Shown: positions 7,072 through 24,000, counted from the first letter of the stretch. The stretch is 24,000 nt of DNA from Crassaminicella indica (GCF_019203185.1 NZ_CP078093.1:1437058-1461057), one strand, 5' to 3'. The notes: generated from the sequence alone by a model not told the origin. Numbers and translations are program-made.

Positions 7072-7914
7072 GTGAAAAAATATTTAAAAATGGTAGGAAA
7101 TATATTTATGTATTCAATTATATATTTTGTACTTCAAATTGCAGCAATATTTGCTGGTAGTATTTTTTATGCAATAAAGTATGCTGGTAAGGTTCCAAAT
7201 GAAGAATTGGTAGGCAAAATTCAAGAAGGTATTACACAAAATACATTTATTTTTGTAGCCACAGCTGCAATTGTTACGTTAGTGATTTATATGCTAATAC
7301 TAAGAAACAAAGAGGAAAACTTATGGCAAAGGTGTAAATTTGAAAAGCTTTCTGTAAAACAGTATATATGGATTGTGCTTGGGCTTATCAGTTTATCCTT
7401 TGTTAGTAGTAATGTAGTTATGTCTACACAACATTTATTTAAAAGCTACGAACAGGTTTCAAAAAGTATAGCAGCAGGAAGTGCATCATTTTTAGGGGCA
7501 ATTTGTGTATTGATTTTATTGCCTATTTTTGAAGAAGTTTTGTTTAGAGGACTTATTTTTAATGAATTAAGAAAACATATCAATATTATTATTAGCGTTG
7601 CTTTGCAGGCTCTTATATTTGGTCTTTTTCATGGGAATATGTTACAAGGCATTTATACTTTCTTTTTAGGTATAATTTTAGCCATTATTTATGTTTGGAG
7701 TAAATCTATATGGGCGCCTATTGTAGGTCATATTGTCTATAATATTATGGGGATTATTGTATTCCCAAGAATACTTAATTATAGTATAAAATTTGCGACT
7801 ATACTTATTATTCCAGGTGTTATAGCTTCAGTAGGTTTTATGATTCCTTTATATTTGCAATACAAAAGATCTTATGAGGAATTATCTAATGTAGATGCAT
7901 CTATTCAATCATAA
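7072..7914 (+). CDS. CPBP-family intramembrane glutamic endopeptidase (CAAX protease / Abi, PF02517-like)
   Basis: 280 aa and multi-TM. It has the three CPBP motifs EEVLFRG, FGLFHG and HIVYN. GTG start lies 7 nt after AGGAGA. Confidence 0.88.
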   Translation: MKKYLKMVGNIFMYSIIYFVLQIAAIFAGSIFYAIKYAGKVPNEELVGKIQEGITQNTFIFVATAAIVTLVIYMLILRNKEENLWQRCKFEKLSVKQYIWIVLGLISLSFVSSNVVMSTQHLFKSYEQVSKSIAAGSASFLGAICVLILLPIFEEVLFRGLIFNELRKHINIIISVALQALIFGLFHGNMLQGIYTFFLGIILAIIYVWSKSIWAPIVGHIVYNIMGIIVFPRILNYSIKFATILIIPGVIASVGFMIPLYLQYKRSYEELSNVDASIQS

Positions 7915-7932
7915 TATTTAGTGCCTATCATA

Positions 7933-7999
7933 TTAAATAATGTTCAAAAATTTATGGAAGATGTTAATAAAAATGGGATAGAACTTAAATAAATGAATA
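7933..7999 (+). pseudogene. 3'-terminal remnant of a paralogue of the bPH-domain gene at 10629-10973
   Basis: A 67-nt stretch matches 10914-10980 with about 5 mismatches. It reads in frame as NVQKFMEDVNKNGIELK*, against NIQKFIEDVKKNGIELK* in the intact gene. No upstream part of the gene is present. Confidence 0.6.
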
Positions 8000-8041
8000 T
8001 TGTATCGAGTATTTATATTATTAACTAAAAATAAAATCTAA

Positions 8042-8449
8042 CAAAGAATAAAGGTTGCTAAATTACATGAAAAAGTAACGAATCAAAGATTGGATTTTAT
8101 TCATAAATTATCTAAAAGAATTATAAGCGAAAACCAAGTTGTAGTTCTTGAGGATTTAGCGGTCAAAAATATGATGAAAAATGATAAATTAGCACAAAGT
8201 ATTTCAGATGTAAGTTGGTATAAATTTGTTACTATACTTGTATATAAAGCAAAGTGGTATGGAAGAAAACTTCATAAAATAGATAGATGGTATCCATCAT
8301 CAAAAACTTGTAGTGAATGTGGGTATGTTATGGAAGATATGCCATTACAAATAAGAGAATGGAAATGTCCTAAATGCGACAGTATTCATGATAGAGATAT
8401 AAATGCAAGCAAAAATATTCTAAAACAAGGATTAGTAGATATAGCATAA
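8042..8449 (+). pseudogene. tnpB: 5'-truncated TnpB (IS200/IS605-family OrfB, RNA-guided nuclease), C-terminal ~135 codons only
   Basis: The open frame from 8042 reads QRIKVAKLHEKVTNQRLDFIHKLSKRI...VVVLEDL (RuvC-II Glu), then CSECG...CPKCDSIHDRDINASKNI (CxxC/CxxC zinc finger and RuvC-III Asp). The WED/REC and RuvC-I parts are absent, and there is no ATG or RBS. Confidence 0.85.
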
Positions 8450-8600
8450 AAATAAGAACCGTAGGTCTTACGGAGATAGCCTGTGGAGATAGTAGGTTAC
8501 GAGGTTTATGAAGCAGGAAAAGTTCTTGGATACACCAAGAAGCCCCCACTTCAGCGTGATCAAGTGGAGGGAGAGTTCACAGCTAGAAAAAAGTCAAGAT
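8450..8600 (+). ncRNA. Omega-RNA (reRNA) scaffold / right end of the degraded IS605-family element
   Basis: It lies directly 3' of the tnpB remnant and is hairpin-rich. Hairpins are ccgta/tacgg (8459-8473), cttgg/ccaag (8525-8539) and a 9-bp GC stem (8543-8571), followed by AGTTCAC (8574-8580). The 3' module recurs at 105-159. Confidence 0.55.
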
Positions 8601-8641
8601 GAGGATAAATTACACCCAATACATTAAAAGGGAGGACAAAT

Positions 8642-9127
8642 ATGAGAATGCTAAAGACTTGTAATGATTTTTTGTATAACATGAAGACTCCCAAATATGT
8701 GGTGTTCATGGCATGTGTAGGTTATGCATCTTCAATTATTCTCTTAAACATTATCTACTTGATTATGGGTATTAATTTTAGTCAAGATGGAGGACCAACT
8801 TATATTAATGTTTTGGATGAAATATTATTTGCCATAATTTTATCTCCTATAATTGAAACTTTAGTATTTCAAACATTTGTATTTACAGTGATGAAAGAAA
8901 TGAGATGGTTTAAAAGTAAAGAATTTTTAATTATGCTATTCTCTGCTGTGTGTTTTAGCGGAATGCATATGATTTATAATGCTTATTATGCTATGAGTGC
9001 ATTCATAATAGGGTTGATCTTAGCATATTCATTTTCAATTTATAGTAAAAAGGGAAAGAAAGCATCTGTAGTAGTTATTTTGATACATAGTTTTATAAAT
9101 ATGATATCGGTTATATTTTCATATTAG
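8642..9127 (+). CDS. Small CPBP/Abi-like membrane protein (degenerate CAAX-protease motifs), possibly an immunity-type protein
   Basis: 161 aa and multi-TM. Motif-like segments are IETLVFQ, FSGMHMIYN and LIHSFIN. RBS AGGGAGG lies upstream of ATG 8642. Confidence 0.65.
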   Translation: MRMLKTCNDFLYNMKTPKYVVFMACVGYASSIILLNIIYLIMGINFSQDGGPTYINVLDEILFAIILSPIIETLVFQTFVFTVMKEMRWFKSKEFLIMLFSAVCFSGMHMIYNAYYAMSAFIIGLILAYSFSIYSKKGKKASVVVILIHSFINMISVIFSY

Positions 9128-9225
9128 GAAGAAGATTAAATTGTAGAGATAAGGGGGATTTTGTCAACAAGTAATTTTATTACCTATATAACAGTAGAAA
9201 AGCAATTCTTATACTCTTGGTTGCT
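8804..9225 (+). repeat. Direct repeat copy 1 (~420 bp), covering the 3' two-thirds of the small CPBP gene plus ~100 bp of downstream tail
   Basis: Near-identical to 10048-10490. The encoded peptides differ at only 2 residues. Confidence 0.9.
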
Positions 9226-9379
9226 CTTTTGCTGTTTAGTTTAAAAAAATTTATTTAATAAATATTATGAAATATTGGTGTAATATGAAATTTGCTTATA
9301 ATTTTTTGTATTGTTGTTATACAAATCTAAAATGGACATTTGAGGATAAAGACAAATTATAAATAGAGAGGTGCTGGGA

Positions 9380-9970
9380 ATGGGTTGGATTGGATATGAT
9401 ACGGAAGAAAAATGGATACAGTTTAGTAGAGAAATAGATGGTAAATACGTAGAAGGTGGATTATTCAAATCTTCACAGGTTAAAGCAAATATATCTAATT
9501 GGAGAATTGTTTTAGATACACAGCTTATTGCAACAGGGCGAACACGTACTACTCATACTAGGATACGAGCACGTTTTGTGAATATATCAGGATTTACTTT
9601 TAAAATTCATAAAAATGGCTTATTTAGTAAGATAGGTAGATTATTTGGTATGCAGAATATATTGATAGGCGATAGCATATTTGATGATAAATTCATAATT
9701 AAAGGAAATGATGAACAAAAAGTAAAACAATTATTTTCAAATAAAAAGATTAGAGAAATGATAAATGCTCAATCTGGAATATATTTGGAAATTACAGATG
9801 AGTACGGAGGTAGTAATATATTAGAGAATAATATTGCCGAATTAAAGTTTAGTGTTGATGGTGAAATAAAAGATGTAGATAGATTAAAACAATTGTTTGA
9901 ATTATTTGAGAAATTATTAAATGAGTTATGTAATATGGGAATGATAGATAGGATAAATTCTAAATTATAA
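9380..9970 (+). CDS. Hypothetical protein (no domain recognised)
   Basis: 196 aa, soluble, with continuous coding character. ATG 9380 follows GAGAGGTG. The track start of 9371 is the GTG inside that RBS. A possible promoter is TTGTAT-N16-TAAAAT at ~9307-9334. Confidence 0.6.
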   Translation: MGWIGYDTEEKWIQFSREIDGKYVEGGLFKSSQVKANISNWRIVLDTQLIATGRTRTTHTRIRARFVNISGFTFKIHKNGLFSKIGRLFGMQNILIGDSIFDDKFIIKGNDEQKVKQLFSNKKIREMINAQSGIYLEITDEYGGSNILENNIAELKFSVDGEIKDVDRLKQLFELFEKLLNELCNMGMIDRINSKL

Positions 9971-10047
9971 GCTCGCTGGAGGTTCAAAATGATAGCGAAT
10001 AATAGTTGTAGATCACAGAAAAAAACACTAACAATCTACTTGGAAGA

Positions 10048-10490
10048 ATTAATGTTTTGGATGAAATATTATTTGCCATAATTTTATCTCCTATAATTGA
10101 AACCTTAGTATTTCAAACATTTGTATTTACAGTGATGAAAGAAATGAGATGGTTTAAAAGTAAAGAATTTTTAATTATGCTATTTTCTGCTGTGTGTTTT
10201 AGTGGAATGCATATGATTTATAATGCTTATTATGCTATGAGTGCATTTATAATAGGGTTGATCTTAACATATTCATTTTCAATTTATAGTAAAAAGGGAA
10301 AGAATGCATCTGTAGTAGTTATTTTGATACATAGTTTTATAAATATGATATCGGTTATATTTTCATATTTGTGAAATTTTCATATTAGGAAGAAAAGAAT
10401 TAAATTGTAGAGATAAGGGGGATTTTGTCAACAAGTAATTTTATTGCTTATATAACAGTAGAAAAGCAACTCCTTATACTCCGGGTTGCT
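10048..10490 (+). repeat. Direct repeat copy 2 (~443 bp)
   Basis: Same sequence as 8804-9225. It carries an extra 17-nt local duplication (ttgtgaaattttcatat) at the end of the CPBP frame and a few substitutions and indels in the tail. Confidence 0.9.
10057..10374 (+). pseudogene. Duplicated C-terminal fragment of the small CPBP-like gene, lacking the N-terminal ~57 codons
   Basis: 105 codons, ~98% identical to residues 58-161 of the 8642-9127 product. The only possible start is a TTG with no RBS. The frame is closed by TAG at 10009-10011. Confidence 0.65.
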
Positions 10491-14885: not shown

Positions 14886-15152
14886 TTATTTTTGATCGGT
14901 GTAATTTTTTGTTTTTATATTACTTACTACATTACAAACTGTATCGCATGTTCCAACTGATGCAATACCAGTGAACAAGCCGTAGATGATATATTCTGCC
15001 GTAGATGAGAATTTTAAGAACAGAAAGCTACCTAATACACCTAATGGCAGAGCGATTAAATGAGCATATCTTTTGGCAAGTCCAAATTTTTCTAGCGTTT
15101 CGGTAATACCAAAAACGACAACAATCAATATACCTATTTTAGAGTCTATCAA
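14886..15152 (-). CDS. Small two/three-TM protein resembling phage holins (A118/Hol118-like architecture)
   Basis: 88 aa. TTG start lies 5 nt after AGGGGTGA. Hydrophobic helices are followed by a charged C-terminal tail (KTKNYTDQK). The family assignment is from memory of holin layouts only. Confidence 0.4.
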   Translation of the reverse strand: MIDSKIGILIVVVFGITETLEKFGLAKRYAHLIALPLGVLGSFLFLKFSSTAEYIIYGLFTGIASVGTCDTVCNVVSNIKTKNYTDQK

Positions 15153-15291: not shown

Positions 15292-16884
15292 ATGATTCGT
15301 GTAAACGAAGTAAAATTATCATTAGATGAGAACACAAGTATTCTAAAAGAAAGAATTGCAAAAAAATTAAAGATAAATGAAAAGGATATTATTGATTATA
15401 AAATATATAGAGAATCAATAGATGCGAGGAGAAAGAATATTTCATTTGTTTATAGCATTGATGTACAGGTGAAAAATGAAGAGAAAATATTAAAGAAGAA
15501 TAAAAATGTAAAAAAGAGTCCTTCTCTTGAATATAAGGATATAGCTTCAGGAAATAAAAGATTGGAGAATCAACCTATTATTATTGGTATGGGACCTGCT
15601 GGTATGTTTGCAGGATTAATTCTTGCAAAGAGAGGATATAGACCTATTATATTAGAACGAGGAGAAGATGTAGATACAAGGACAAAGGATGTAGAAAGCT
15701 TTTGGAATATTGGAAAACTCAAAATAGATTCAAATGTTCAGTTTGGTGAAGGGGGAGCAGGAACCTTTTCAGATGGAAAATTAACCACTAGAATAAAAGA
15801 TATAAGATGTAGAAAAGTATTGGATGAATTTGTAAAGATGGGTGCACCAGAGGAAATTCTTTATGTGCAAAAGCCTCATATTGGAACAGATATTTTAAAG
15901 AATGTAGTAAAAAATATAAGAAAATCCATAGAAGCTTTTGGGGGAGAGGTTAGATTTAAAAGTAAAGTAACGGACTTTTTCATAGAAGATGGGAAGATAA
16001 AGGGATTGGAGATTAATGGAAGTACAAGAATAGCTGCGAAAGAGGTGATTTTGGCTATAGGTCATAGTGCAAGAGACACTTATGAAATTTTACATAAAAG
16101 AGGAGTACAAATTAGGCAAAAGCCTTTTTCAATAGGGGTACGCATAGAGCATCAACAGGGCATGGTGAATAGGTCTCAGTATAAAGAATTTGCAGAGCAT
16201 CCAAGATTAGGTGCTGCTGATTACAGACTAACTTATCAGAGCAAAAATGGTAGAGCGGTTTATACATTTTGTATGTGCCCGGGAGGAACAGTTGTTGCTG
16301 CAGCATCTGAAGAGAATATGGTAGTAACTAATGGTATGAGTGAATATAAGCGTGACAAAGAAAACGCGAATAGTGCTTTATTAGTACAGGTAAATACAGA
16401 TGATTTTGAAAGTGATCATCCACTTGCAGGTGTAGCATTTCAACAAAAATGGGAAAAACTAGCCTTTCAAGCAGGAGGCAGTAATTATTTTGCACCAGCT
16501 CAATTAGTAGGGGATTTTCTAAAGGATGTACCGTCAAATAAATTAGGAAATGTAAAGCCTTCTTATTTACCGGGTGTGAAATTAACAGATTTAAAAAAAT
16601 GTCTTCCAGGCTTTGTGATAGAGTCTATGAAGGAAGCTATTATTGAGATGGATAAAAAATTAAATGGGTTTGCCATGAGCGATGCAGTCATGACAGGAGT
16701 AGAAACAAGAAGCTCAGCACCTATTAGAATAGAAAGAAATGCGGATACAATGGAAAGCATCAACATAAAAGGTATGTATCCTATTGGGGAAGGAGCAGGA
16801 TATGCAGGGGGGATTATTTCTGCTGCGGTAGATGGGATAAAAGCAGCAGAGAGGATTATAGAGAAATATACACCTTTCATATAA
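15292..16884 (+). CDS. FAD-dependent oxidoreductase of the COG2509 family (uncharacterised FAD-dependent dehydrogenase)
   Basis: 530 aa. Dinucleotide-binding motif IIIGMGPAGMFAG, then GEGGAGTFSDGKL and GEGAGYAGGI near the C-terminus. Confidence 0.85.
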   Translation: MIRVNEVKLSLDENTSILKERIAKKLKINEKDIIDYKIYRESIDARRKNISFVYSIDVQVKNEEKILKKNKNVKKSPSLEYKDIASGNKRLENQPIIIGMGPAGMFAGLILAKRGYRPIILERGEDVDTRTKDVESFWNIGKLKIDSNVQFGEGGAGTFSDGKLTTRIKDIRCRKVLDEFVKMGAPEEILYVQKPHIGTDILKNVVKNIRKSIEAFGGEVRFKSKVTDFFIEDGKIKGLEINGSTRIAAKEVILAIGHSARDTYEILHKRGVQIRQKPFSIGVRIEHQQGMVNRSQYKEFAEHPRLGAADYRLTYQSKNGRAVYTFCMCPGGTVVAAASEENMVVTNGMSEYKRDKENANSALLVQVNTDDFESDHPLAGVAFQQKWEKLAFQAGGSNYFAPAQLVGDFLKDVPSNKLGNVKPSYLPGVKLTDLKKCLPGFVIESMKEAIIEMDKKLNGFAMSDAVMTGVETRSSAPIRIERNADTMESINIKGMYPIGEGAGYAGGIISAAVDGIKAAERIIEKYTPFI

Positions 16885-16885
16885 G

Positions 16886-16915
16886 AATAACCAGCAATTT
16901 GCTGGTTATTTTAGT
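16886..16915 (+). terminator. Rho-independent terminator
   Basis: Perfect 26-nt palindrome aataaccagcaaatttgctggttatt followed by a T-rich run. Confidence 0.75.
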
Positions 16916-16964
16916 ATATGAATAGTAGTGTTGTGTTTTGAAGTTGGAATCTTATATTTGAAGC

Positions 16965-16993
16965 TTTACAATACATATCAAATATGATATAAT
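16965..16993 (+). promoter_or_regulatory. Strong sigma-A-type promoter with an extended -10
   Basis: TTTACA (16965-16970), 17-nt spacer, TATAAT (16988-16993), preceded by TGa (16985-16987). It lies ~445 nt upstream of the next CDS. Confidence 0.6.
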
Positions 16994-17438
16994 ATTCTTG
17001 CTAAGAGTACGCGAAAAAATCGTGTCTTATCCTATAAAAGAATAGAAGCAATTAAATTAAAGAAAGCTTTCATTTAAATTTTGTCTGATCAGGACATTGC
17101 TTTTCTTTATTATTCTTTCTGATTATTTATTCTATCATTTGCTTATATTTAAAAATTTTACCTTGTATGAAAAGATCATAAAAATTGAATAAAAATTTTA
17201 TCCTGTAATCATTTTTGACTGTGCATACTGAATGTATGTGTGGTAGAGAAATGTTAATTTTTTACACCTCTATAAATGCAGAATATTACAAAAATTACAT
17301 CTATTTACAAAACAACATGAGGAAACACATGGATGTGTTGTTGTGTGCTAAATATATGGTTTCTTAATATTTATGAATAACTAGTGAATTGAAACGATAG
17401 TGCTGTAGAAATAAGAAGAATAGTAGGGAGGTTGTTAG

Positions 17439-18569
17439 ATGAAAGGAAATTTATTTAAAGAACTTAAATTTGCTGTTATCGGTGCAGGACATGGAGGACA
17501 AGGAATAGCTGGTTATTTAGCTTATAAGGGATATAAAGTTAATCTATATAATCGTAGCATTGAAAGAATTAAGAAGATTAAGCAAAGAGGGTATATTGAT
17601 CTTGTAGGAGATGTTGTTGGAAGAGGAATACTAAATTTAGTTACCAATAGTATTGAACAAGCTATAAAAAATGTAGATGTAATTATGGTTGTGTTACCTG
17701 CTAGTGCACACAAATTCATTGCAAACAATATTGCGCCTTTTGTAACAAAAGATCAATATATTGTCCTAAATCCCGGAAGAACAGGAGGCGCATTAGAGTT
17801 TAAGAGTATTATCGCACGGCATAATCCATTAAAGGAAGTTTGTATTGTGGAAGCACAAACACTTCTTTTTGCATGTAGAGCGTTAGAAGAAGGAAAGGTG
17901 AAAATATTCAGCAAAAAAGAAGAAGTAAAAGTTGCAGCCCTTCCAGCTGTAAGGAATCATGAATTCATCAATAAAATCAATGAAGTGTTTCCAGAATTTA
18001 CACCAGCTTCAAGCGTGCTAGAAACAAGCTTTAATAATGTAGGTGCTCTCCTTCATCCTATTCCAACAATTTTAAATTGTGCTAGGATTGAAAATACAAA
18101 AGGGGATTTTAGATATTATATAGATGGCATTACTCCTGCTGTAGCTAAAATTATTGAGCAGGTAGATGAAGAAAGAATTCAGGTGGCGAGAGCTTTAGGG
18201 GTTAAAGTTATGTCTTTAAAAGAATGGTTGGCATACACATATAATGCTTATGGAAATACCCTATGTGAAGCGTTAAAGAATGCAAAAGGATATTGGGGAA
18301 TTCAGGCACCTATGAGTTTGGATACTAGATATATTTATGAAGATGTACCTCAAAGCTTAGTTCCTATTTGGGATATGGCAAACCATCTAAGTTTGCAAAC
18401 TCCAACTATTCAAGCCATTGTTCACTTAGCATCTATTCTTCATAATACGGATTATTATAGAAGTGGCAGAAAAGTAATAGATATGGGACTAGAAGGATTA
18501 TCTATAAATGAAATACAGGCTTTCGTCATCGATGGTCAAGTATCAGATTCAAGAGGAGTGGTAGCGTAA
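17439..18569 (+). CDS. NAD(P)-dependent octopine/nopaline (opine) dehydrogenase family protein
   Basis: Rossmann motif VIGAGHGGQGIAGYL. The C-terminal helical-domain pattern is LLHPIPTILNCARIE...FRYYIDGITPAVAKIIEQVDEERIQVARALGV. RBS GGGAGG lies upstream. Confidence 0.85.
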   Translation: MKGNLFKELKFAVIGAGHGGQGIAGYLAYKGYKVNLYNRSIERIKKIKQRGYIDLVGDVVGRGILNLVTNSIEQAIKNVDVIMVVLPASAHKFIANNIAPFVTKDQYIVLNPGRTGGALEFKSIIARHNPLKEVCIVEAQTLLFACRALEEGKVKIFSKKEEVKVAALPAVRNHEFINKINEVFPEFTPASSVLETSFNNVGALLHPIPTILNCARIENTKGDFRYYIDGITPAVAKIIEQVDEERIQVARALGVKVMSLKEWLAYTYNAYGNTLCEALKNAKGYWGIQAPMSLDTRYIYEDVPQSLVPIWDMANHLSLQTPTIQAIVHLASILHNTDYYRSGRKVIDMGLEGLSINEIQAFVIDGQVSDSRGVVA

Positions 18570-20221
18570 TGAAAAAATATTTAGGAGCAGCAATTGGAAA
18601 TTGTGTACATGTAGGTGGTGTTGTAAACTTTTTAAGACTTGCAGAGGAAGAAGGAAATACTGTTGAATTTTTAGGAGCAGCAGTTAAAATAGAAAAATTG
18701 ATAGCTGCCATTATTAATATAAAGCCTGATGTGGTGAGTATAGGTTTTAGATTAACTCCTGATGCAGTAAGACCTTTACTTAATGAACTTAAAAAACATA
18801 TATATGAAAAAAATTTAAAAGATATAGAGTGGATTTTTGGTGGAACAAAACCTGTAGCAAAGATTGCAGAAGAATATGACTTTTTTTCTAAAATATTTGA
18901 TGGTACAGAGGATTTAGATGATGTCATCAATTATATAAGAGGAAGAAATTTAAAAGAAGCTTCAGGGAATGAACCTCAAAATATTGTTGAAAGAATAGCA
19001 TCTAAGTATCCATATCCAGTTATTAGGCATCATTTTGGTCTGCCATCCTTTGAAGAAACATATGAAGGGATAAAAAAGATTTCAGAGGCAAAGGTTTTAG
19101 ATGTGATTTCTATAGGGCCAGATCAAAATGCACAGGAAAACTTTTTTACACCAGAAAAAATGGATCATGATTTAGATGGAGCAGGTGGAGTACCATTAAG
19201 AAAAGTAGAAGACTTTAAAAAATTATATGAAGCTTCTCAAAGAGGCAATTACCCGCTATTAAGATGCTATAGTGGAACAGCGGAAGTTTTTCGGTTTGCA
19301 GAAATGCTGAAGGATACTATAAATAATGCATGGTGTGCTGTGCCTCTATGCTGGTACAATGTATTAGATGGAAGGGGTCAAAGAGAAGTTTTAGAATCTA
19401 TTACACAGAGCCAGCAGTTGATGAAGTGGCATGCAAAGAGAAATATTCCTATAGAGGTAAATGAAGCCCATCATTGGAGTTTAAGAGATGCTCATGATAC
19501 TATTGGTGTAGCTATGGCATATTTAGCAGCTTATAATGCAAAGAAAATGGGTGTCAAAAATTATATTGCTCAATATATGTTTAATGTACCTCCATCTATG
19601 TATCATAGTATGGACCTTGCTAAAATGCTTGCAAAAATAGAGATGATTGAATCATTAGAAGATGAGAACTTTAAAGCATATCGACAAGTAAGGGCAGGAC
19701 TTGCGAGCTTGAGTGCGGACTTAGATGTAGCAAAGGGGCAATTAGCAGCTTCTACCTATCTTGCTATGAGCATAAAACCTCATATTGTTCATGTAGTAGG
19801 CTTTAGTGAAGCAGATCATGCAGCAAAGCCTGAAGATGTAATTGAAAGCTGTAAAATTGTAAGAGGAGTTATAAGATCTACACTTCATGGAATGGCAGAT
19901 ATGACTAAGGATCAGGCTGTGAAGAATAGAAAAAATGAGCTAATAGAGGAAGCAAAAATTTTATTGAACACAATAAAATCTCTATATCCTGAAAGTAAAG
20001 ATCCTTGGAGTGATCCAAAGGTACTTACAGATGTTATCAAGAGGGGAATTATTGATGCACCACATTTAAGAGGAAATAAGAGTGCAAAGGGAACTTTAGA
20101 AACAAGGATCGTAAATGGAAAATGTATGGCTTACTCTAAAAGATTAGGAAGAGTCGTTTCTGAAAAGGAGAGAATTACTGAACTGTTGAATAATGAAATC
20201 GATAAAAGCTTTTCTGCATAA
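18569..20221 (+). CDS. Protein with an N-terminal B12-binding-like Rossmann domain fused to a large TIM-barrel-like domain; function unknown
   Basis: The first ~125 aa follow a glutamate mutase S / MtaC-like layout (GAAIGNCVHVGG ... PDVVSIGFRL ... IFGG), with C-x-H-x-x-G in place of D-x-H-x-x-G. Its start overlaps the upstream stop (TAATG). Confidence 0.6.
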   Translation: MKKYLGAAIGNCVHVGGVVNFLRLAEEEGNTVEFLGAAVKIEKLIAAIINIKPDVVSIGFRLTPDAVRPLLNELKKHIYEKNLKDIEWIFGGTKPVAKIAEEYDFFSKIFDGTEDLDDVINYIRGRNLKEASGNEPQNIVERIASKYPYPVIRHHFGLPSFEETYEGIKKISEAKVLDVISIGPDQNAQENFFTPEKMDHDLDGAGGVPLRKVEDFKKLYEASQRGNYPLLRCYSGTAEVFRFAEMLKDTINNAWCAVPLCWYNVLDGRGQREVLESITQSQQLMKWHAKRNIPIEVNEAHHWSLRDAHDTIGVAMAYLAAYNAKKMGVKNYIAQYMFNVPPSMYHSMDLAKMLAKIEMIESLEDENFKAYRQVRAGLASLSADLDVAKGQLAASTYLAMSIKPHIVHVVGFSEADHAAKPEDVIESCKIVRGVIRSTLHGMADMTKDQAVKNRKNELIEEAKILLNTIKSLYPESKDPWSDPKVLTDVIKRGIIDAPHLRGNKSAKGTLETRIVNGKCMAYSKRLGRVVSEKERITELLNNEIDKSFSA

Positions 20222-20354: not shown

Positions 20355-20915
20355 GTGGAGGAGGTTAATAGAGAAGAATTAATTTTAAAGGATTCAGAGA
20401 TGGAGCTAATAGATACAAATGCTTTAGAGCATATAGAAAAAAAATCTAATAAAAGCTTATCAGTTATGCTTGAAAAGCTTTTGCGCAATGACAAGATTCT
20501 GCCGATTCTATTCTATGCATGGATAAATAGGCAAGAGAAAAAAAGTATAGAACCTTATTGGACTGATCAACTAAAAAATATAGTAGAAAAGGCGGAAAAT
20601 CTATTAGAGGTTTTGTATGCATTAGATGATTATACAAAGGATGAAGAAAGGTATAATGGTACTTATAAGCAAAATAAACCAGTAGAGCTATTAGAAGTTA
20701 TCAGACCCCATGTATATGGTATTAGTAGACAAAAAATAGATCAAGCAATTGCAGTAAATGATTGCTTGAGCCGATTAAAGGAAAATAAAGGTGATTTAAT
20801 AGAAGTATTTGAAAATATTACAGATATATTGGAAATACTAGAAATAAAAAAAGGTACTGATATGAAAAAAACCTTAAATAAAGCAAAAGAGATCATACAA
20901 ATTATGAAAAGGTAA
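20355..20915 (+). CDS. Hypothetical protein (predicted helical, no recognised domain)
   Basis: ~186 aa with consistent coding character. GTG 20355 lies 4-5 nt after GGAGGGGG. The track's TTG at 20337 is upstream of that RBS. Confidence 0.55.
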   Translation: MEEVNREELILKDSEMELIDTNALEHIEKKSNKSLSVMLEKLLRNDKILPILFYAWINRQEKKSIEPYWTDQLKNIVEKAENLLEVLYALDDYTKDEERYNGTYKQNKPVELLEVIRPHVYGISRQKIDQAIAVNDCLSRLKENKGDLIEVFENITDILEILEIKKGTDMKKTLNKAKEIIQIMKR

Positions 20916-20916
20916 A

Positions 20917-20948
20917 AGTTTCTGCTCTGCAGGAACTTGTTTCTTTTT
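20917..20948 (+). terminator. Rho-independent terminator
   Basis: agtttctg / caggaact 8-bp stem with a 5-nt loop, then a T-rich tail. Confidence 0.5.
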
Positions 20949-21007
20949 GTAGCTTTTAGGGAATAATATATACATAGTTTAATGCTTGTATATTTTTAAA
21001 ATTTATA

Positions 21008-21036
21008 TTGACAAAATAAGAAAAATATACTAAAAT
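21008..21036 (+). promoter_or_regulatory. Sigma-A promoter of the HesB-like selenoprotein gene
   Basis: TTGACA (21008-21013), 17-nt spacer, TAAAAT (21031-21036). A 7-bp GC-rich 5' hairpin (21044-21062) and RBS AGGAGG (21071-21076) follow. Confidence 0.65.
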
Positions 21037-21083
21037 GTAAGCAACCCCCTATGGGAGGGGGTAAATAAAAAGGAGGTTTGTCT

Positions 21084-21389
21084 ATGTATATAAATGTTTC
21101 AGATAAAGCAAAGGAAATGATTACAAAGCAATTAAAAGAGAAGGAACAAGAAAGTGCCTTTTTAAGAATATTTATCAAGGGCTTTGGTTGAGGTGGTCCA
21201 ACATTTGGAATAGCCCTGGAAGGGTCAAAAGATGATGAAAAAGATTACCTTGAAGAAGTAAATGGATTAAAGATCATAGTAGAAAAAGATTTATTAAATC
21301 AGTTTAAAAATTTTCAAATAGATTATTCTGATGGATGGTTCTCTAAAGGATTTAGAATTATTGCAGGAGCAGGAGGTTCATCTTGCTAA
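21084..21389 (+). CDS. HesB/IscA-like selenoprotein, with Sec encoded by in-frame TGA at 21189-21191
   Basis: ATG lies 7 nt after AGGAGG. Reading through the TGA gives a 101-aa product: MYINVSDKAKEMITKQLKEKEQESAFLRIFIKGFG-U-GGPTFGIALEGSKDDEKDYLEEVNGLKIIVEKDLLNQFKNFQIDYSDGWFSKGFRIIAGAGGSSC. The G-F-G-U-G-G position corresponds to the conserved Cys of HesB-like proteins (the TIGR01911 family contains Sec members). Confidence 0.8.
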
Positions 21390-21452
21390 AAAATCCAAGA
21401 GGAGCATTATACTAGGATAATTGTTTTAGTTTTACAGCAAGGAGTTGAGACA

Positions 21453-21944
21453 ATGGCCGCAAAAAAATCACATCAATCATGGTCATGGATTTTAATGGTG
21501 CTATTCATCACACTATCTATTGTAGATATACGTTTTGGATTATTAGGATTTATCTGTATGGGTGCTCCTATTTATCATGCTTTACGAGGAGAAGGAAAAA
21601 TTCATTGTTCTAAATATTGTCCAAGAGGTTCTATATTAGGTAAATTTCTTCAATATATAAGCTTAAACAATAATTTGCCAAAAGCTTTTAGAGGAAAAAA
21701 TGCGAAGAATATATTATTAACGATTATGATGGTTATGTTTGGTATATCTTTATATCATGCATTTTATCAACCTAATGTGCTAAGAGCAGTAGCTTTTGCT
21801 GTTTTTAGATTGATGATGGCATCATTCATATTAGGGATTATAATGGGAGTTATTTTCAAGCCACGCAGTTGGTGTCAAGTATGTCCTATGGGTCATGCAA
21901 CAGGGCTAATAAAAGAAAGTCAGGATAAAAAAGCGAAAAAATAA
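21453..21944 (+). CDS. Membrane protein with two CxxCP-type motifs (4Fe-4S-binding, Fer4_5-like)
   Basis: 163 aa and multi-TM. Cysteine motifs are HCSKYCPRG and SWCQVCPMG. RBS AAGGAG lies 8 nt upstream. Confidence 0.6.
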   Translation: MAAKKSHQSWSWILMVLFITLSIVDIRFGLLGFICMGAPIYHALRGEGKIHCSKYCPRGSILGKFLQYISLNNNLPKAFRGKNAKNILLTIMMVMFGISLYHAFYQPNVLRAVAFAVFRLMMASFILGIIMGVIFKPRSWCQVCPMGHATGLIKESQDKKAKK

Positions 21945-22040
21945 ATAAAAAATTGAATCAGTTGCTTGATTTTGTGTGTAAAGCAGTAGTATAGTGGGTA
22001 TAGAATGATTGAGTATTTCAAAAATAAGGAGGAGTTTTAT

Positions 22041-22271
22041 ATGAGTAAAAATGTAGTAGTATATTCAAGTAATACATGTATATACTGTAAGGAAGCAAAG
22101 GATTATTTAAAATCATTAGGAGTGGAATATACAGAAAAAAATGTTTCTACAGATATGGCAGCTAGAAAGGAATTGATCAAAAAAGGATTCATGGGCGTGC
22201 CAGTAATTATGGTAGATGATGAAGTAATTCAAGGATTTGATAAAGACAAAATAGATGAATTATTAAAATAG
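22041..22271 (+). CDS. Glutaredoxin-like protein, YruB/NrdH type
   Basis: 76 aa from the ATG after AAGGAGGAG. Motifs [19 protein letters not shown] (CxxC active site) and [16 protein letters not shown]. Confidence 0.85.
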
Positions 22272-22276
22272 TGTAT

Positions 22277-22315
22277 TAAAAACGTGCTGTGACGAAAAGT
22301 CGCAGCACGTTTTTA
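22277..22315 (+). terminator. Rho-independent terminator
   Basis: acgtgctgtgac / gtcgcagcacgt 12-bp stem with loop GAAAA, then TTTT. It lies inside the 5' part of the track ORF 22317-, which argues for a later start of that gene. Confidence 0.8.
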
Positions 22316-22403
22316 GTTGTTTAAAATAAAATTTTGTTTAAAATCTAGTGAAATTGCTAACAATTATATAGGAGATGAAGGAATAGAAAATAGAAAGGAT
22401 CAG

Positions 22404-23414
22404 ATGCGTATGAAAATTGGCATACCTAGGGGATTGTTCTATTACTATTATTATCCTCTTTGGACAAAATTTTTTGAAACATTAGGAGCAGAAGTTATTG
22501 TATCTGGAAAAACCAACAAGCAGATTATAGATAGTGGTGTGCAGCATACAGTAGATGATGCATGTCTTCCTGTAAAGATATACCATGGTCATGTAATGGA
22601 TTTGAAGGACAAGGTTGATCTTATATTTGTACCCAAAATTATGAGTATTTATAAAGGTGAATATATTTGTCCTAAATTTTGTGGGCTACCAGAAATGATC
22701 AAAAGTTCATTAAAGGATTTACCGCCTATTATAGATACAACTATTGATTTTCATAAATCCAAAAAAAAATTATTGAAAACTGTATATGAGATAGGAAAAT
22801 ATGTTACGCATGATAAAAATAAAATTCATTTTGCATTTGAACAATCGCTCAAGCAGCATAAAGCTTATATGGATTATATGAAAAAAGGGATACTACCTAC
22901 AGATATTGATGGTAGCAAAAGGCTTCAGTGTATTCATTCGTGTAAAAATAAGAAGAAAATCCTTCTTTTAGGACACCCCTATAATATATATGATGCATAT
23001 CTTAGTATGAATATCATAGAAAAATTAAGAAAAAATCATCTTCATGTGATGACGCAGGATACTTTTGATACTAGGATTATTAATGAAAAGGCAGCAACAA
23101 TGGATAAGAAGATGTTTTGGAGCTTTGGAAGAAAAGTATTAGGAGCAGCTCTTTATGCTATGGAACAAAAAGATATTCAGGGGATTATTTATCTATCAAG
23201 CTTTGGATGTGGTATAGATTCTGTTATAGCAGATATTATTGAAAGAAGAACAAGGAGAAATGCTGATAAACCATTTATTTTGCTCACATTAGATGAGCAT
23301 ACAGGGGAAGCTGGAATAGATACAAGAATAGAAGCATTTGTAGACATGATTCAATGGAGGGAAAAAAATGAAAATTACATTTCCACACATGGGAAATATG
23401 TATCTACCAATTAA
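22404..23414 (+). CDS. Acyl-CoA dehydratase activase-related protein (DUF2229 family)
   Basis: The N-terminus MRMKIGIPRGLFYYYYYPLWTKFFETLGAEVIVSG is typical of DUF2229 proteins. I moved the start downstream of the terminator. ATG 22410 is an alternative start. Confidence 0.75.
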   Translation: MRMKIGIPRGLFYYYYYPLWTKFFETLGAEVIVSGKTNKQIIDSGVQHTVDDACLPVKIYHGHVMDLKDKVDLIFVPKIMSIYKGEYICPKFCGLPEMIKSSLKDLPPIIDTTIDFHKSKKKLLKTVYEIGKYVTHDKNKIHFAFEQSLKQHKAYMDYMKKGILPTDIDGSKRLQCIHSCKNKKKILLLGHPYNIYDAYLSMNIIEKLRKNHLHVMTQDTFDTRIINEKAATMDKKMFWSFGRKVLGAALYAMEQKDIQGIIYLSSFGCGIDSVIADIIERRTRRNADKPFILLTLDEHTGEAGIDTRIEAFVDMIQWREKNENYISTHGKYVSTN

Positions 23415-24000
23415 AGCTATGTTTGATGATTTGGGAGTAGAGGTTGTTGTACCTCCTAAAAATAGTAAAAAAACATTAGAAATTGGTACTAAATATTCAC
23501 CTGAGCTTATTTGCTTGCCTATGAAGATCAATTTAGGAAATTATGTAGAAAGTATAGAAAAAGGTGCAGATACTATTGTAGTGACAGGAAGCTGTGGACC
23601 TTGCAGATTTGGTTATTTTGCAGAGGTAGAAAAGGAGATTTTAAAGGATTTAGGTTATGATGTGGAATTTGTAGTATTAGAAGCACCTGATGGAGACATA
23701 AAGGAATTTTATAACCGAATTAGCAAAATTGCTAATACAAAAAATATGATAAAAATTGCAAAGGCATTAAAGGGTGGTATAAGTGTACTAAAGAAAATTG
23801 ATAAGCTTGAAGAGCAAGTACTAAAATTAAGACCTTACGAAAAAAATAAAGGAGATATAGATAAAGTTTATAAGAAACTTATAAGCAATCTTGAAAATAT
23901 TACTGGAGCTCAAAAAATGCTCCAATTGATCAGTCAAGCTCAAAGAGATATAGAAAAAATACCTCTTGATTATAACAGAGATGTTCTAAAGGTTGGGTTA
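23368..24000 (+). CDS. Second DUF2229 / 2-hydroxyacyl-CoA-dehydratase-like subunit, 3'-partial (runs off the window)
   Basis: ATG 23368 follows GGAGGG. The 211 open codons to the window end begin MKITFPHMGNMYLPIKAMFDDLGVEVVVPPKNSKKTLEIGTKYSPELICLPMK...GSCGPCRFGYF. It overlaps the upstream gene by 47 nt. It is absent from the track because no stop is reached. Confidence 0.75.
   Translation, partial: MKITFPHMGNMYLPIKAMFDDLGVEVVVPPKNSKKTLEIGTKYSPELICLPMKINLGNYVESIEKGADTIVVTGSCGPCRFGYFAEVEKEILKDLGYDVEFVVLEAPDGDIKEFYNRISKIANTKNMIKIAKALKGGISVLKKIDKLEEQVLKLRPYEKNKGDIDKVYKKLISNLENITGAQKMLQLISQAQRDIEKIPLDYNRDVLKVGL

Follow-up and report, generated by a model that had tools for sequence, protein, structure and literature searches.

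HesB-like proteins are one of 25 classic bacterial selenoprotein families, with members in the Clostridia such as those of Alkaliphilus (PMC1794560). The family, listed as TIGR01911, has the motif UxGP (PMC13188914), U being selenocysteine (Sec), and one of its members, MMJJ_08070 of Methanococcus maripaludis, was validated by 75Se labelling (PMC11097638). Alkaliphilus metalliredigens and Desulfitobacterium hafniense are among its carriers. Here we describe a locus of this kind in Crassaminicella indica (NZ_CP078093.1:1437058-1461057, a stretch of 24,000 nucleotides that we refer to as the window), in which positions 21084-21389 of the + strand very probably encode a 101-residue selenoprotein of the HesB/IscA fold, with a UGA codon read as Sec by means of a bacterial selenocysteine insertion sequence (bSECIS) and with expression of the unit probably repressed by a regulator of the CsoR family. 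A preliminary description of the window had proposed that a HesB-like selenoprotein gene was missed here by annotation, and family membership, conservation of the UGA, selection on the flanking codons and one of two nearby hairpins all support that proposal. To judge from its sequence, the gene appears to be a real, otherwise ordinary, unrecorded member of a known selenoprotein family.

The reading frame opens with the ATG at 21084 and holds 101 codons (Met1 to Cys101), followed by TAA at 21387-21389. It is interrupted by one TGA, codon 36 (21189-21191, + strand), in the context G-F-G-U-G-G-P with the motif U-G-G-P, and 65 sense codons lie beyond it; the tryptic peptide spanning the Sec would be IFIKGFG-U-GGPTFGIALEGSK. 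Over this gene the + strand listing of open reading frames (ORFs) contains solely a truncated 37-aa piece (21078-21191), and the 60-aa ORF on the - strand (20996-21178) is considered spurious, overlapping as it does the promoter, leader and N-terminal coding part of a + strand gene under purifying selection. A scan of the window for further TGA-interrupted genes returned antisense artefacts only. Upstream, a sigma-70-type promoter (21008-21036), recognised by consensus match alone, combines TTGACA (21008-21013) and TAAAAT (21031-21036) across 17 nt and agrees with the consensus at 11 of 12 positions; TTGACA and a TATAAT-like box are found at the equivalent relative place in homologous loci. 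The ribosome-binding site AGGAGG (21071-21076), again read from the sequence, stands 7 nt 5' of the ATG, and GGAGG is kept before the aligned start codon in homologues. The gene upstream (20355-20915) is closed by an intrinsic-terminator-like hairpin and T-run on the + strand (20916-20948; a 10-pair stem at 20916-20938, then GTTTCTTTTT), and the HesB-like gene would therefore open a new transcription unit. The preliminary description had listed no ORF on the + strand here and a spurious antisense one, had placed the promoter, AGGAGG and ATG where we read them, and had described the frame, with its TGA at codon 36, 65 further codons and TAA, correctly. It had also expected the gene to be mis-annotated, and accessions QXM05149.1, QXM05150.1 and QXM05151.1 are in fact numbered consecutively across it, leaving no protein record between the first two, so the gene has none in the deposited C. 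indica annotation, which either missed it or flagged it as a pseudogene. Six proteins encoded in the window are identical to deposited proteins of C. indica.

Profile searches were run on the read-through protein with U replaced by C. The protein reached the cut-off of the NCBIfam model TIGR01911 (HesB-like protein; 67.1 bits against 66.35) and the gathering score of Pfam PF01521 (Fe-S_biosyn; 37.9 bits against 26.3), the two families against which a search had earlier been suggested, and residue U36 aligned with the first cluster-ligand Cys (GGC-SG) of 1NWB (Aquifex Aq_1857) and 2APN (Haemophilus HI1723), as expected if Sec occupies the place of the conserved Cys. From these profiles and PDB alignments taken together, the predicted HesB/IscA fold is clear. 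With the described HesB-like selenoproteins (TIGR01911, UxGP) the window protein shares the fold, Sec at the first conserved Cys, a length of about 100 residues, a Gly/Ser/Cys-rich C-terminus and an anaerobic host among the Clostridia; it differs from them in its marginal model score and in the single C-terminal Cys of its clade.

The comparison extends to the A-type carriers (IscA, SufA and ErpA, with 1NWB and 2APN), which likewise possess the PF01521 domain and the first ligand Cys to which residue 36 corresponds. Unlike them, the window protein has Sec for that Cys and one terminal Cys in place of C-x-C, and it scored below the cut-off of the A-type carrier model TIGR00049 (IscA/SufA/ErpA; 52.8 against 58.8). 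Carriers of this type are recognised by three Cys, one central and two in a C-x-C; the window protein has only Sec36 and Cys101, with no C-x-C. In view of these differences, a carrier function is not established for the window protein. Cys101 (codon 21384-21386, + strand) is the sole Cys of the protein and the likely partner of Sec36; it is invariant among close homologues, and a Cys lies within the last four residues in 66 of the 67 distinct complete family members, being the only Cys in 53 of the 67, some 63 residues past the Sec. The A-type C...C-x-C ligand set thereby appears to be cut down to a Sec/Cys pair. The two residues could be joined in a redox-active selenenylsulfide or, alternatively, make up a two-ligand metal or sulfur site that could be completed across a dimer.

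A protein-database search yielded eight full-length homologues, at 43-79% identity, and in each record the UGA is represented by W. For four of the eight, the encoding DNA was examined in five contigs (L001-L005); every one has TGA at that codon, and its translation under table 11 is not the recorded protein. Where checked, the recorded W is an artefact of alternative-code (TGA=Trp) gene calling on short contigs. The Logan and JGI protein collections store HesB-like selenoproteins (P0001-P0008) with Trp for Sec, and such translation of short contigs can systematically conceal selenoproteins in databases of this type. A scan of reference genomes used a pattern with [W/C] at the Sec position, which made it blind to TGA genes, and found three distant relatives (L006-L008) with Cys at the site, in G-M-G-C-G-G-P. 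A DNA pattern scan that demanded TGA at the site returned 88 metagenome stretches; with the window and the earlier loci counted, 91 of 94 TGA-pattern matches were true homologues, with the read-through frame complete and the C-terminal half conserved, and the TGA-bearing homologues extend down to 43% identity. Together with the Cys relatives L006-L008, they constitute a classic Sec/Cys pair. Termination of homologues at this position had been named in advance as a result that would tell against Sec; instead, TGA or Cys was aligned across the site.

The 65 codons that follow the UGA had ratios of nonsynonymous to synonymous differences per site (pN/pS) of 0.19-0.34, at pS of about 0.5-0.6, when compared with the five closest homologues, and in these comparisons the constraint after the UGA was as strong as before it (the pre-UGA value for L038 being invalid owing to a 2-codon indel). 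Such values indicate purifying selection on the codons downstream of the UGA, and the C-terminal 65 residues, which had been described as coding, are accordingly found to be both conserved and constrained. Among the 23 ORFs of the window, two end in TGA, and Trp is encoded by TGG 61 times, against one in-frame TGA. Since TGA is an ordinary stop in the ORFs of the window, there is no genome-wide reassignment, and read-through must be site-specific.

Two hairpins after the UGA had been put forward as candidate bSECIS elements, ccct-GGA-aggg (21214-21224) and tccaa/ttgga (21197-21209); the former was supported by covariation, whereas the latter proved to be mostly forced by the codons. The supported apical hairpin (hairpin 2; 21213-21225, + strand) has a stem composed of G21213.U21225, three C-G pairs and U21217-A21221, closed by a GGA loop at 21218-21220, and is positioned 22-38 nt past the UGA with a spacing of 26 nt from UGA to loop. 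At the level of the family its helix occupies alignment columns 23-28 and 34-39, equivalent to 21211-21227 of the window. In an ungapped alignment of 64 distinct sequences, evaluated by explicit pair count, 81.5% of the cells of this helix were paired and five of its six pairs had changed on both sides. When both helices were tested together, none of 500 shuffles matched the observed paired percentage or covariation score, and controls in which the partner was slid gave lower values of each. We also compared folding energies with synonymous-codon controls, in which the protein was held fixed and codons were resampled: the family mean for hairpin 2 was -6.5 kcal/mol, against -1.6 kcal/mol in the controls (Wilcoxon p=7e-12), 51 of the 64 sequences reached 0.05 or less, and the window's own copy had -5.5 against -2.1 +/- 1.8 kcal/mol (0.053). 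At the same site, Cys relatives with a similar peptide had no hairpin (0, -2.4 and 0 kcal/mol).

Published constraints for bSECIS elements are a loop of 3-9 nt, a stem of 4 bp or more, G in the first two loop positions, a distance of 16-37 nt from the UGA and a minimum free energy of -7.5 kcal/mol or lower (PMC13188914). Hairpin 2 of the window satisfies them with its GGA loop, 4-5 bp stem, 26-nt spacing and -8.6 kcal/mol over 47 nt; like the bSECISearch consensus, it is a stem-loop within the coding sequence just after the UGA, with an N1-G-G-N-N2 loop and a stem of at least 4 bp. The bSECIS check suggested in the preliminary description therefore came out well for the consensus constraints, but not for the folding of the window sequence by itself, which did not surpass shuffles. 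The SECIS of Escherichia coli fdhF is the prototype of bacterial SECIS elements. The window element is unlike it in being much shorter and in having no bulged U evident, and binding of SelB at this hairpin is a prediction. A scan of the window against Rfam gave no match.

Hairpin 1, UCCAA-CAU-UUGGA (21197-21209, + strand), has weak support and probably reflects the Pro and Gly codons in which it lies. Its two inner C-G pairs, which fall in CCN and GGN codons, never vary, its outer pairs are open in 29-34 of the 64 sequences, and its excess over synonymous shuffles was only small, with 0.26 for the window copy. A divergent subgroup of the family has the motif GFGUGGPKFGI-D/S/E...P, and in some of its members UUUGG(A), from the Phe-Gly codons, can pair with the (U)CCAAA that encodes Pro-Lys. 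This alternative stem may be an alternative SECIS.

Genes of the Sec machinery adjoin the HesB-like gene in five homologous loci, namely tRNA-Sec, selA, selB and selD in L025 (280-5906) and L072, tRNA-Sec, selA and selB in L044, selA and selD in L051, and selA in L079. The members of this machinery-linked subgroup carry the motif MTGIGUGGPRF and are without the G-tract operator described below. The selD ORF of L025 begins at profile position 75, and this selD may itself have an N-terminal in-frame Sec codon. For C. indica, Sec decoding is a reasonable inference, to which these loci lend indirect support.

Combining these observations, we propose that transcription would begin at the promoter at 21008-21036 and that, during translation, the UGA of codon 36 would not be taken as a stop. 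The hairpin at 21213-21225, with its GG-containing loop 26 nt past the UGA, would act as a bSECIS element and bring SelB with Sec-tRNA(Sec) by the established mechanism, whereupon Sec would be inserted and translation would run to the TAA at 21387. The unit headed by the HesB-like gene would include the genes for a CX3CP membrane protein and for a glutaredoxin-like protein of the YruB type, and a non-copper, x-C-x-C repressor of the CsoR family, encoded elsewhere in the genome, probably acts through a site at 21045-21061.

That site, located between the -10 box and the ribosome-binding site, is the G-tract pseudopalindrome CCCCCTATGGGAGGGGG, a CCCCCT/AGGGGG inverted repeat that begins 9 nt past the -10 box, is unique in the 24 kb window (0.09 expected by chance) and may serve as the operator of a repressor from the CsoR/RcnR family (PF02583). 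The preliminary description had called it a leader hairpin; the inverted repeat is indeed present, but its recurrence in homologues, their TAC-X9-GTA sites and the linkage to PF02583 genes favour an operator over a leader hairpin. Type 2 operators of the CsoR family are G-tract pseudopalindromes with the hallmark 5'-TAC-X9-GTA-3' (PMC3902906), and the bound S. mitis cst operator is ATATACCCTTATGGGGTATAT (PMC8643695). As in that operator and in the S. lividans operator ATATACCCCTNAGGGGTATAT, the window element presents a C-tract and then a G-tract between the -10 box and the start codon. The same succession between -10 box and ribosome-binding site was found in 31 of 68 upstream regions of homologues, whereas shuffles gave 0.7 and other windows from these loci showed it in 2.5% of cases, and the opposite polarity occurred once. 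Exact TAC-X9-GTA is present upstream of 11 homologous genes (0.01 expected), and a longer-spaced class, which includes the window's CAACCCCCTATGGGAGGGGGTAA, accounts for 25 of 66 distinct upstream regions (0.02 expected).

PF02583 genes (84-88.5 bits against a cut-off of 22.8) directly follow the HesB(Sec)-glutaredoxin pair in ten loci and are located within 3-7 kb of it in six more. Their occurrence in cis goes with the longer-spaced class, 10 of 25 such loci having one, against 1 of 41 others (p=1.3e-4). In the linked regulators, two Cys are present and the Cu-ligand His is replaced by Tyr or Asn (x-C-(Y/N)-C), and an x-C-x-C pattern is that of persulfide sensors, not Cu sensors (PMC8643695). 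These regulators had no close match to any characterised CsoR subgroup. The locus thus resembles the CsoR/CstR systems in the arrangement of its tracts and in the exact TAC-X9-GTA sites of homologous loci, many with PF02583 in cis, and departs from them in the longer window element (AAC-X15-GTA), in regulators of an uncharacterised x-C-(Y/N)-C branch, in having no regulator gene in the window and in regulated genes that are neither for copper efflux nor for any known sulfide detoxification. Ten loci (L011, L028, L037, L039, L046, L054, L058, L060, L071 and L083) contain a compact unit of HesB-like(Sec), YruB-type glutaredoxin and PF02583 genes, for example at 2499-3323 of L039. Among the seven of them with enough upstream sequence and passing the scan, the pseudopalindrome was present in L011, L028, L039, L054, L071 and L083, and L060 had a partial C-tract only. 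This arrangement suggests that the three-gene unit is an operon autoregulated by a repressor from an uncharacterised CsoR-family branch. An 88-aa ORF of the window (14886-15152, - strand) was tried as a CsoR-family repressor and rejected, having the look of a small hydrophobic membrane protein and giving no tblastn match.

The best-surviving alternative concerns this element alone and holds that 21045-21061 is a stem-loop at the 5' end of the RNA, either an mRNA stabiliser or a translational element, and not an operator. A 6-bp, G-C-rich hairpin can form here, at -13.3 kcal/mol in context, the element would fall at the very start of the transcript or close to it, and both the absence of a PF02583 gene from the window and the departure of the spacing from canonical TAC-X9-GTA would be in keeping with such a role. 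An RNA stem-loop does not account for the fixed polarity of the tracts (31 of 68 regions with the C-tract first and one the other way round), for the 11 homologous sites that are exactly TAC-X9-GTA, a motif defined by experiment (PMC3902906, PMC8643695; 0.01 sites expected by chance), or for the fact that the window's long class is the very class with PF02583 in the same operon. We consider a pure RNA role unlikely, though far from negligible, and lean towards 21045-21061 being an operator of a CsoR-family repressor; the two roles are not mutually exclusive.

Several results weigh against our interpretation of the locus. The TIGR01911 score exceeds its cut-off by less than 1 bit, and the sister model NF038090 (IscA/HesB, selenoprotein-containing subfamily) gave 64.5, below its cut-off of 85. 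The window's hairpin 2 is short (4-5 bp) and, at 0.053, borderline by itself; single-sequence folding of the post-UGA region was no better than shuffles (z = -0.46 and +0.23), which means that folding energy by itself is no proof. RNAalifold, given the mixed 64-sequence alignment, missed the hairpin, likely because of a subgroup without it and of two register-shifted sequences, and five divergent members (L022, L041, L049, L077 and L093) have no hairpin at the usual place. Within the 24 kb window, a tRNA scan found no tRNA, and there is no sel gene. The putative operator reads AAC-X15-GTA in place of the canonical TAC-X9-GTA, and no PF02583 gene is found within the window.

Three further explanations dispense with present-day Sec insertion at codon 36. 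The first is that the gene is ancestrally that of a selenoprotein, and that Sec decoding was recently lost in C. indica, leaving the gene silent or truncated. Losses of the Sec trait and of HesB-like selenoproteins are documented for some lineages (PMC1794560). Against this, the frame, C-terminal Cys, hairpin, promoter and ribosome-binding site are all intact, and pN/pS after the UGA is as low as before it at pS of about 0.5, leaving little room for long neutral decay. An intact and constrained gene argues against a long period without Sec decoding in C. indica, and a recent loss is, to our minds, very improbable. Still less credible is a pseudogene, in which a Cys-type HesB/IscA gene would have been killed by a mutation from TGY to TGA and a 35-residue fragment or nothing would be made. 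TGA is a stop in the standard code, it closes two other ORFs of the window, and the deposited annotation has no protein record here; however, all 91 homologous matches to the pattern (the window included, and the pattern demanding TGA) share the position of the TGA, to 43% identity, the 65 downstream codons evolve at pN/pS of 0.19-0.34, and the TGA is followed by a covarying hairpin that is missing in the Cys homologues. Decoding of the UGA as Trp or another standard amino acid, by reassignment (code 4 or 25) or leaky read-through, would accord with the W shown at the site by all eight database homologues, but we regard it as the least plausible of all, the W being an artefact where checked (L001-L005, for four of the eight, with TGA in the DNA), TGA ending 2 of 23 window ORFs with TGG used 61 times against one in-frame TGA, and true non-Sec relatives having Cys, not Trp.

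Read as a selenoprotein gene, the locus has several implications. A real C. indica gene is unrecorded and its database relatives carry a false Trp at Sec, an annotation that is hereby corrected; it is also implied that a deep-sea species of the Clostridiaceae decodes selenocysteine. The neighbourhood of the window gene, with its CX3CP membrane protein, YruB-type glutaredoxin and CsoR-type operator, was not found described for HesB-like selenoproteins in the literature consulted, and the pairing with glutaredoxin and the linkage to a CsoR-family operator and repressor provide a testable route to the function of the family. Tentatively, we suggest that HesB-like selenoproteins of this clade might not be general Fe-S assembly factors but the lead gene of a stress-inducible module, which would comprise a Sec/Cys HesB-fold protein and a YruB-type glutaredoxin, in some cases with the CX3CP membrane protein, and would be repressed by the x-C-(Y/N)-C CsoR branch through G-tract operators, the signal, by analogy with CstR, being a thiol-reactive metal or a reactive species of sulfur or selenium. 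If true, this would be the first functional and regulatory context for the HesB-like selenoprotein family.

Directly downstream, 21453-21944 (+ strand) encodes a 163-aa membrane protein deposited as a 4Fe-4S binding protein (QXM05150.1), with a CX3CP and a CX2CP motif (CSKYCP and CQVCP), a Fer4_5 score of 23.7 bits and a weak NapH-like match. Such a CX3CP membrane protein was found between the HesB-like and glutaredoxin-like genes in only eight loci, the window included, and might link the HesB/glutaredoxin pair to the membrane redox pool. It is followed at 22041-22271 (+ strand) by a YruB-family glutaredoxin-like protein of 76 aa with a CxxC motif (QXM05151.1; TIGR02196, 89.5 bits against 88.55). 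Of 60 distinct loci, 22 have a same-strand YruB-type homologue no more than 1.5 kb downstream of the HesB-like gene, as a rule at a distance of 11-47 nt from the HesB stop. The start of the window's glutaredoxin gene is ambiguous, the longest ORF running from 22005 and the deposited protein from 22041, and the DUF2229/HGD-D protein encoded next (22317-23414) has NCBI versions of 365 aa and 336 aa. No terminator-like site is seen between the HesB-like gene and the glutaredoxin or DUF2229/HGD-D genes, nor anywhere in 21300-24000, and the unit may for this reason extend further.

On the other side, the 186-aa hypothetical protein QXM05149.1 (20355-20915, + strand) has no family match. In L005 and L038, homologues at 34-45% identity are encoded immediately before the HesB-like gene, so that this position of the protein may be conserved within the closest clade. 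Farther away, the region 7072-10374 contains the C-terminal fragment of an IS200/IS605 TnpB (8090-8449, 119 aa, corresponding to positions 246-360 of 360), probably a decayed insertion element, set among three paralogues of CPBP/Rce1-like intramembrane proteases (7072-7914, 8642-9127 and 10057-10374). A cluster at 15292-20221 comprises genes for an FAD-dependent protein (PF21688), for a member of the octopine/nopaline dehydrogenase family and for a 550-aa protein that matches no family apart from the B12-binding domain at its N-terminus; the second and third of these genes overlap at 18569. In L034, a copy of this B12-domain protein with 78% identity is encoded some 8 kb away from the HesB operon.

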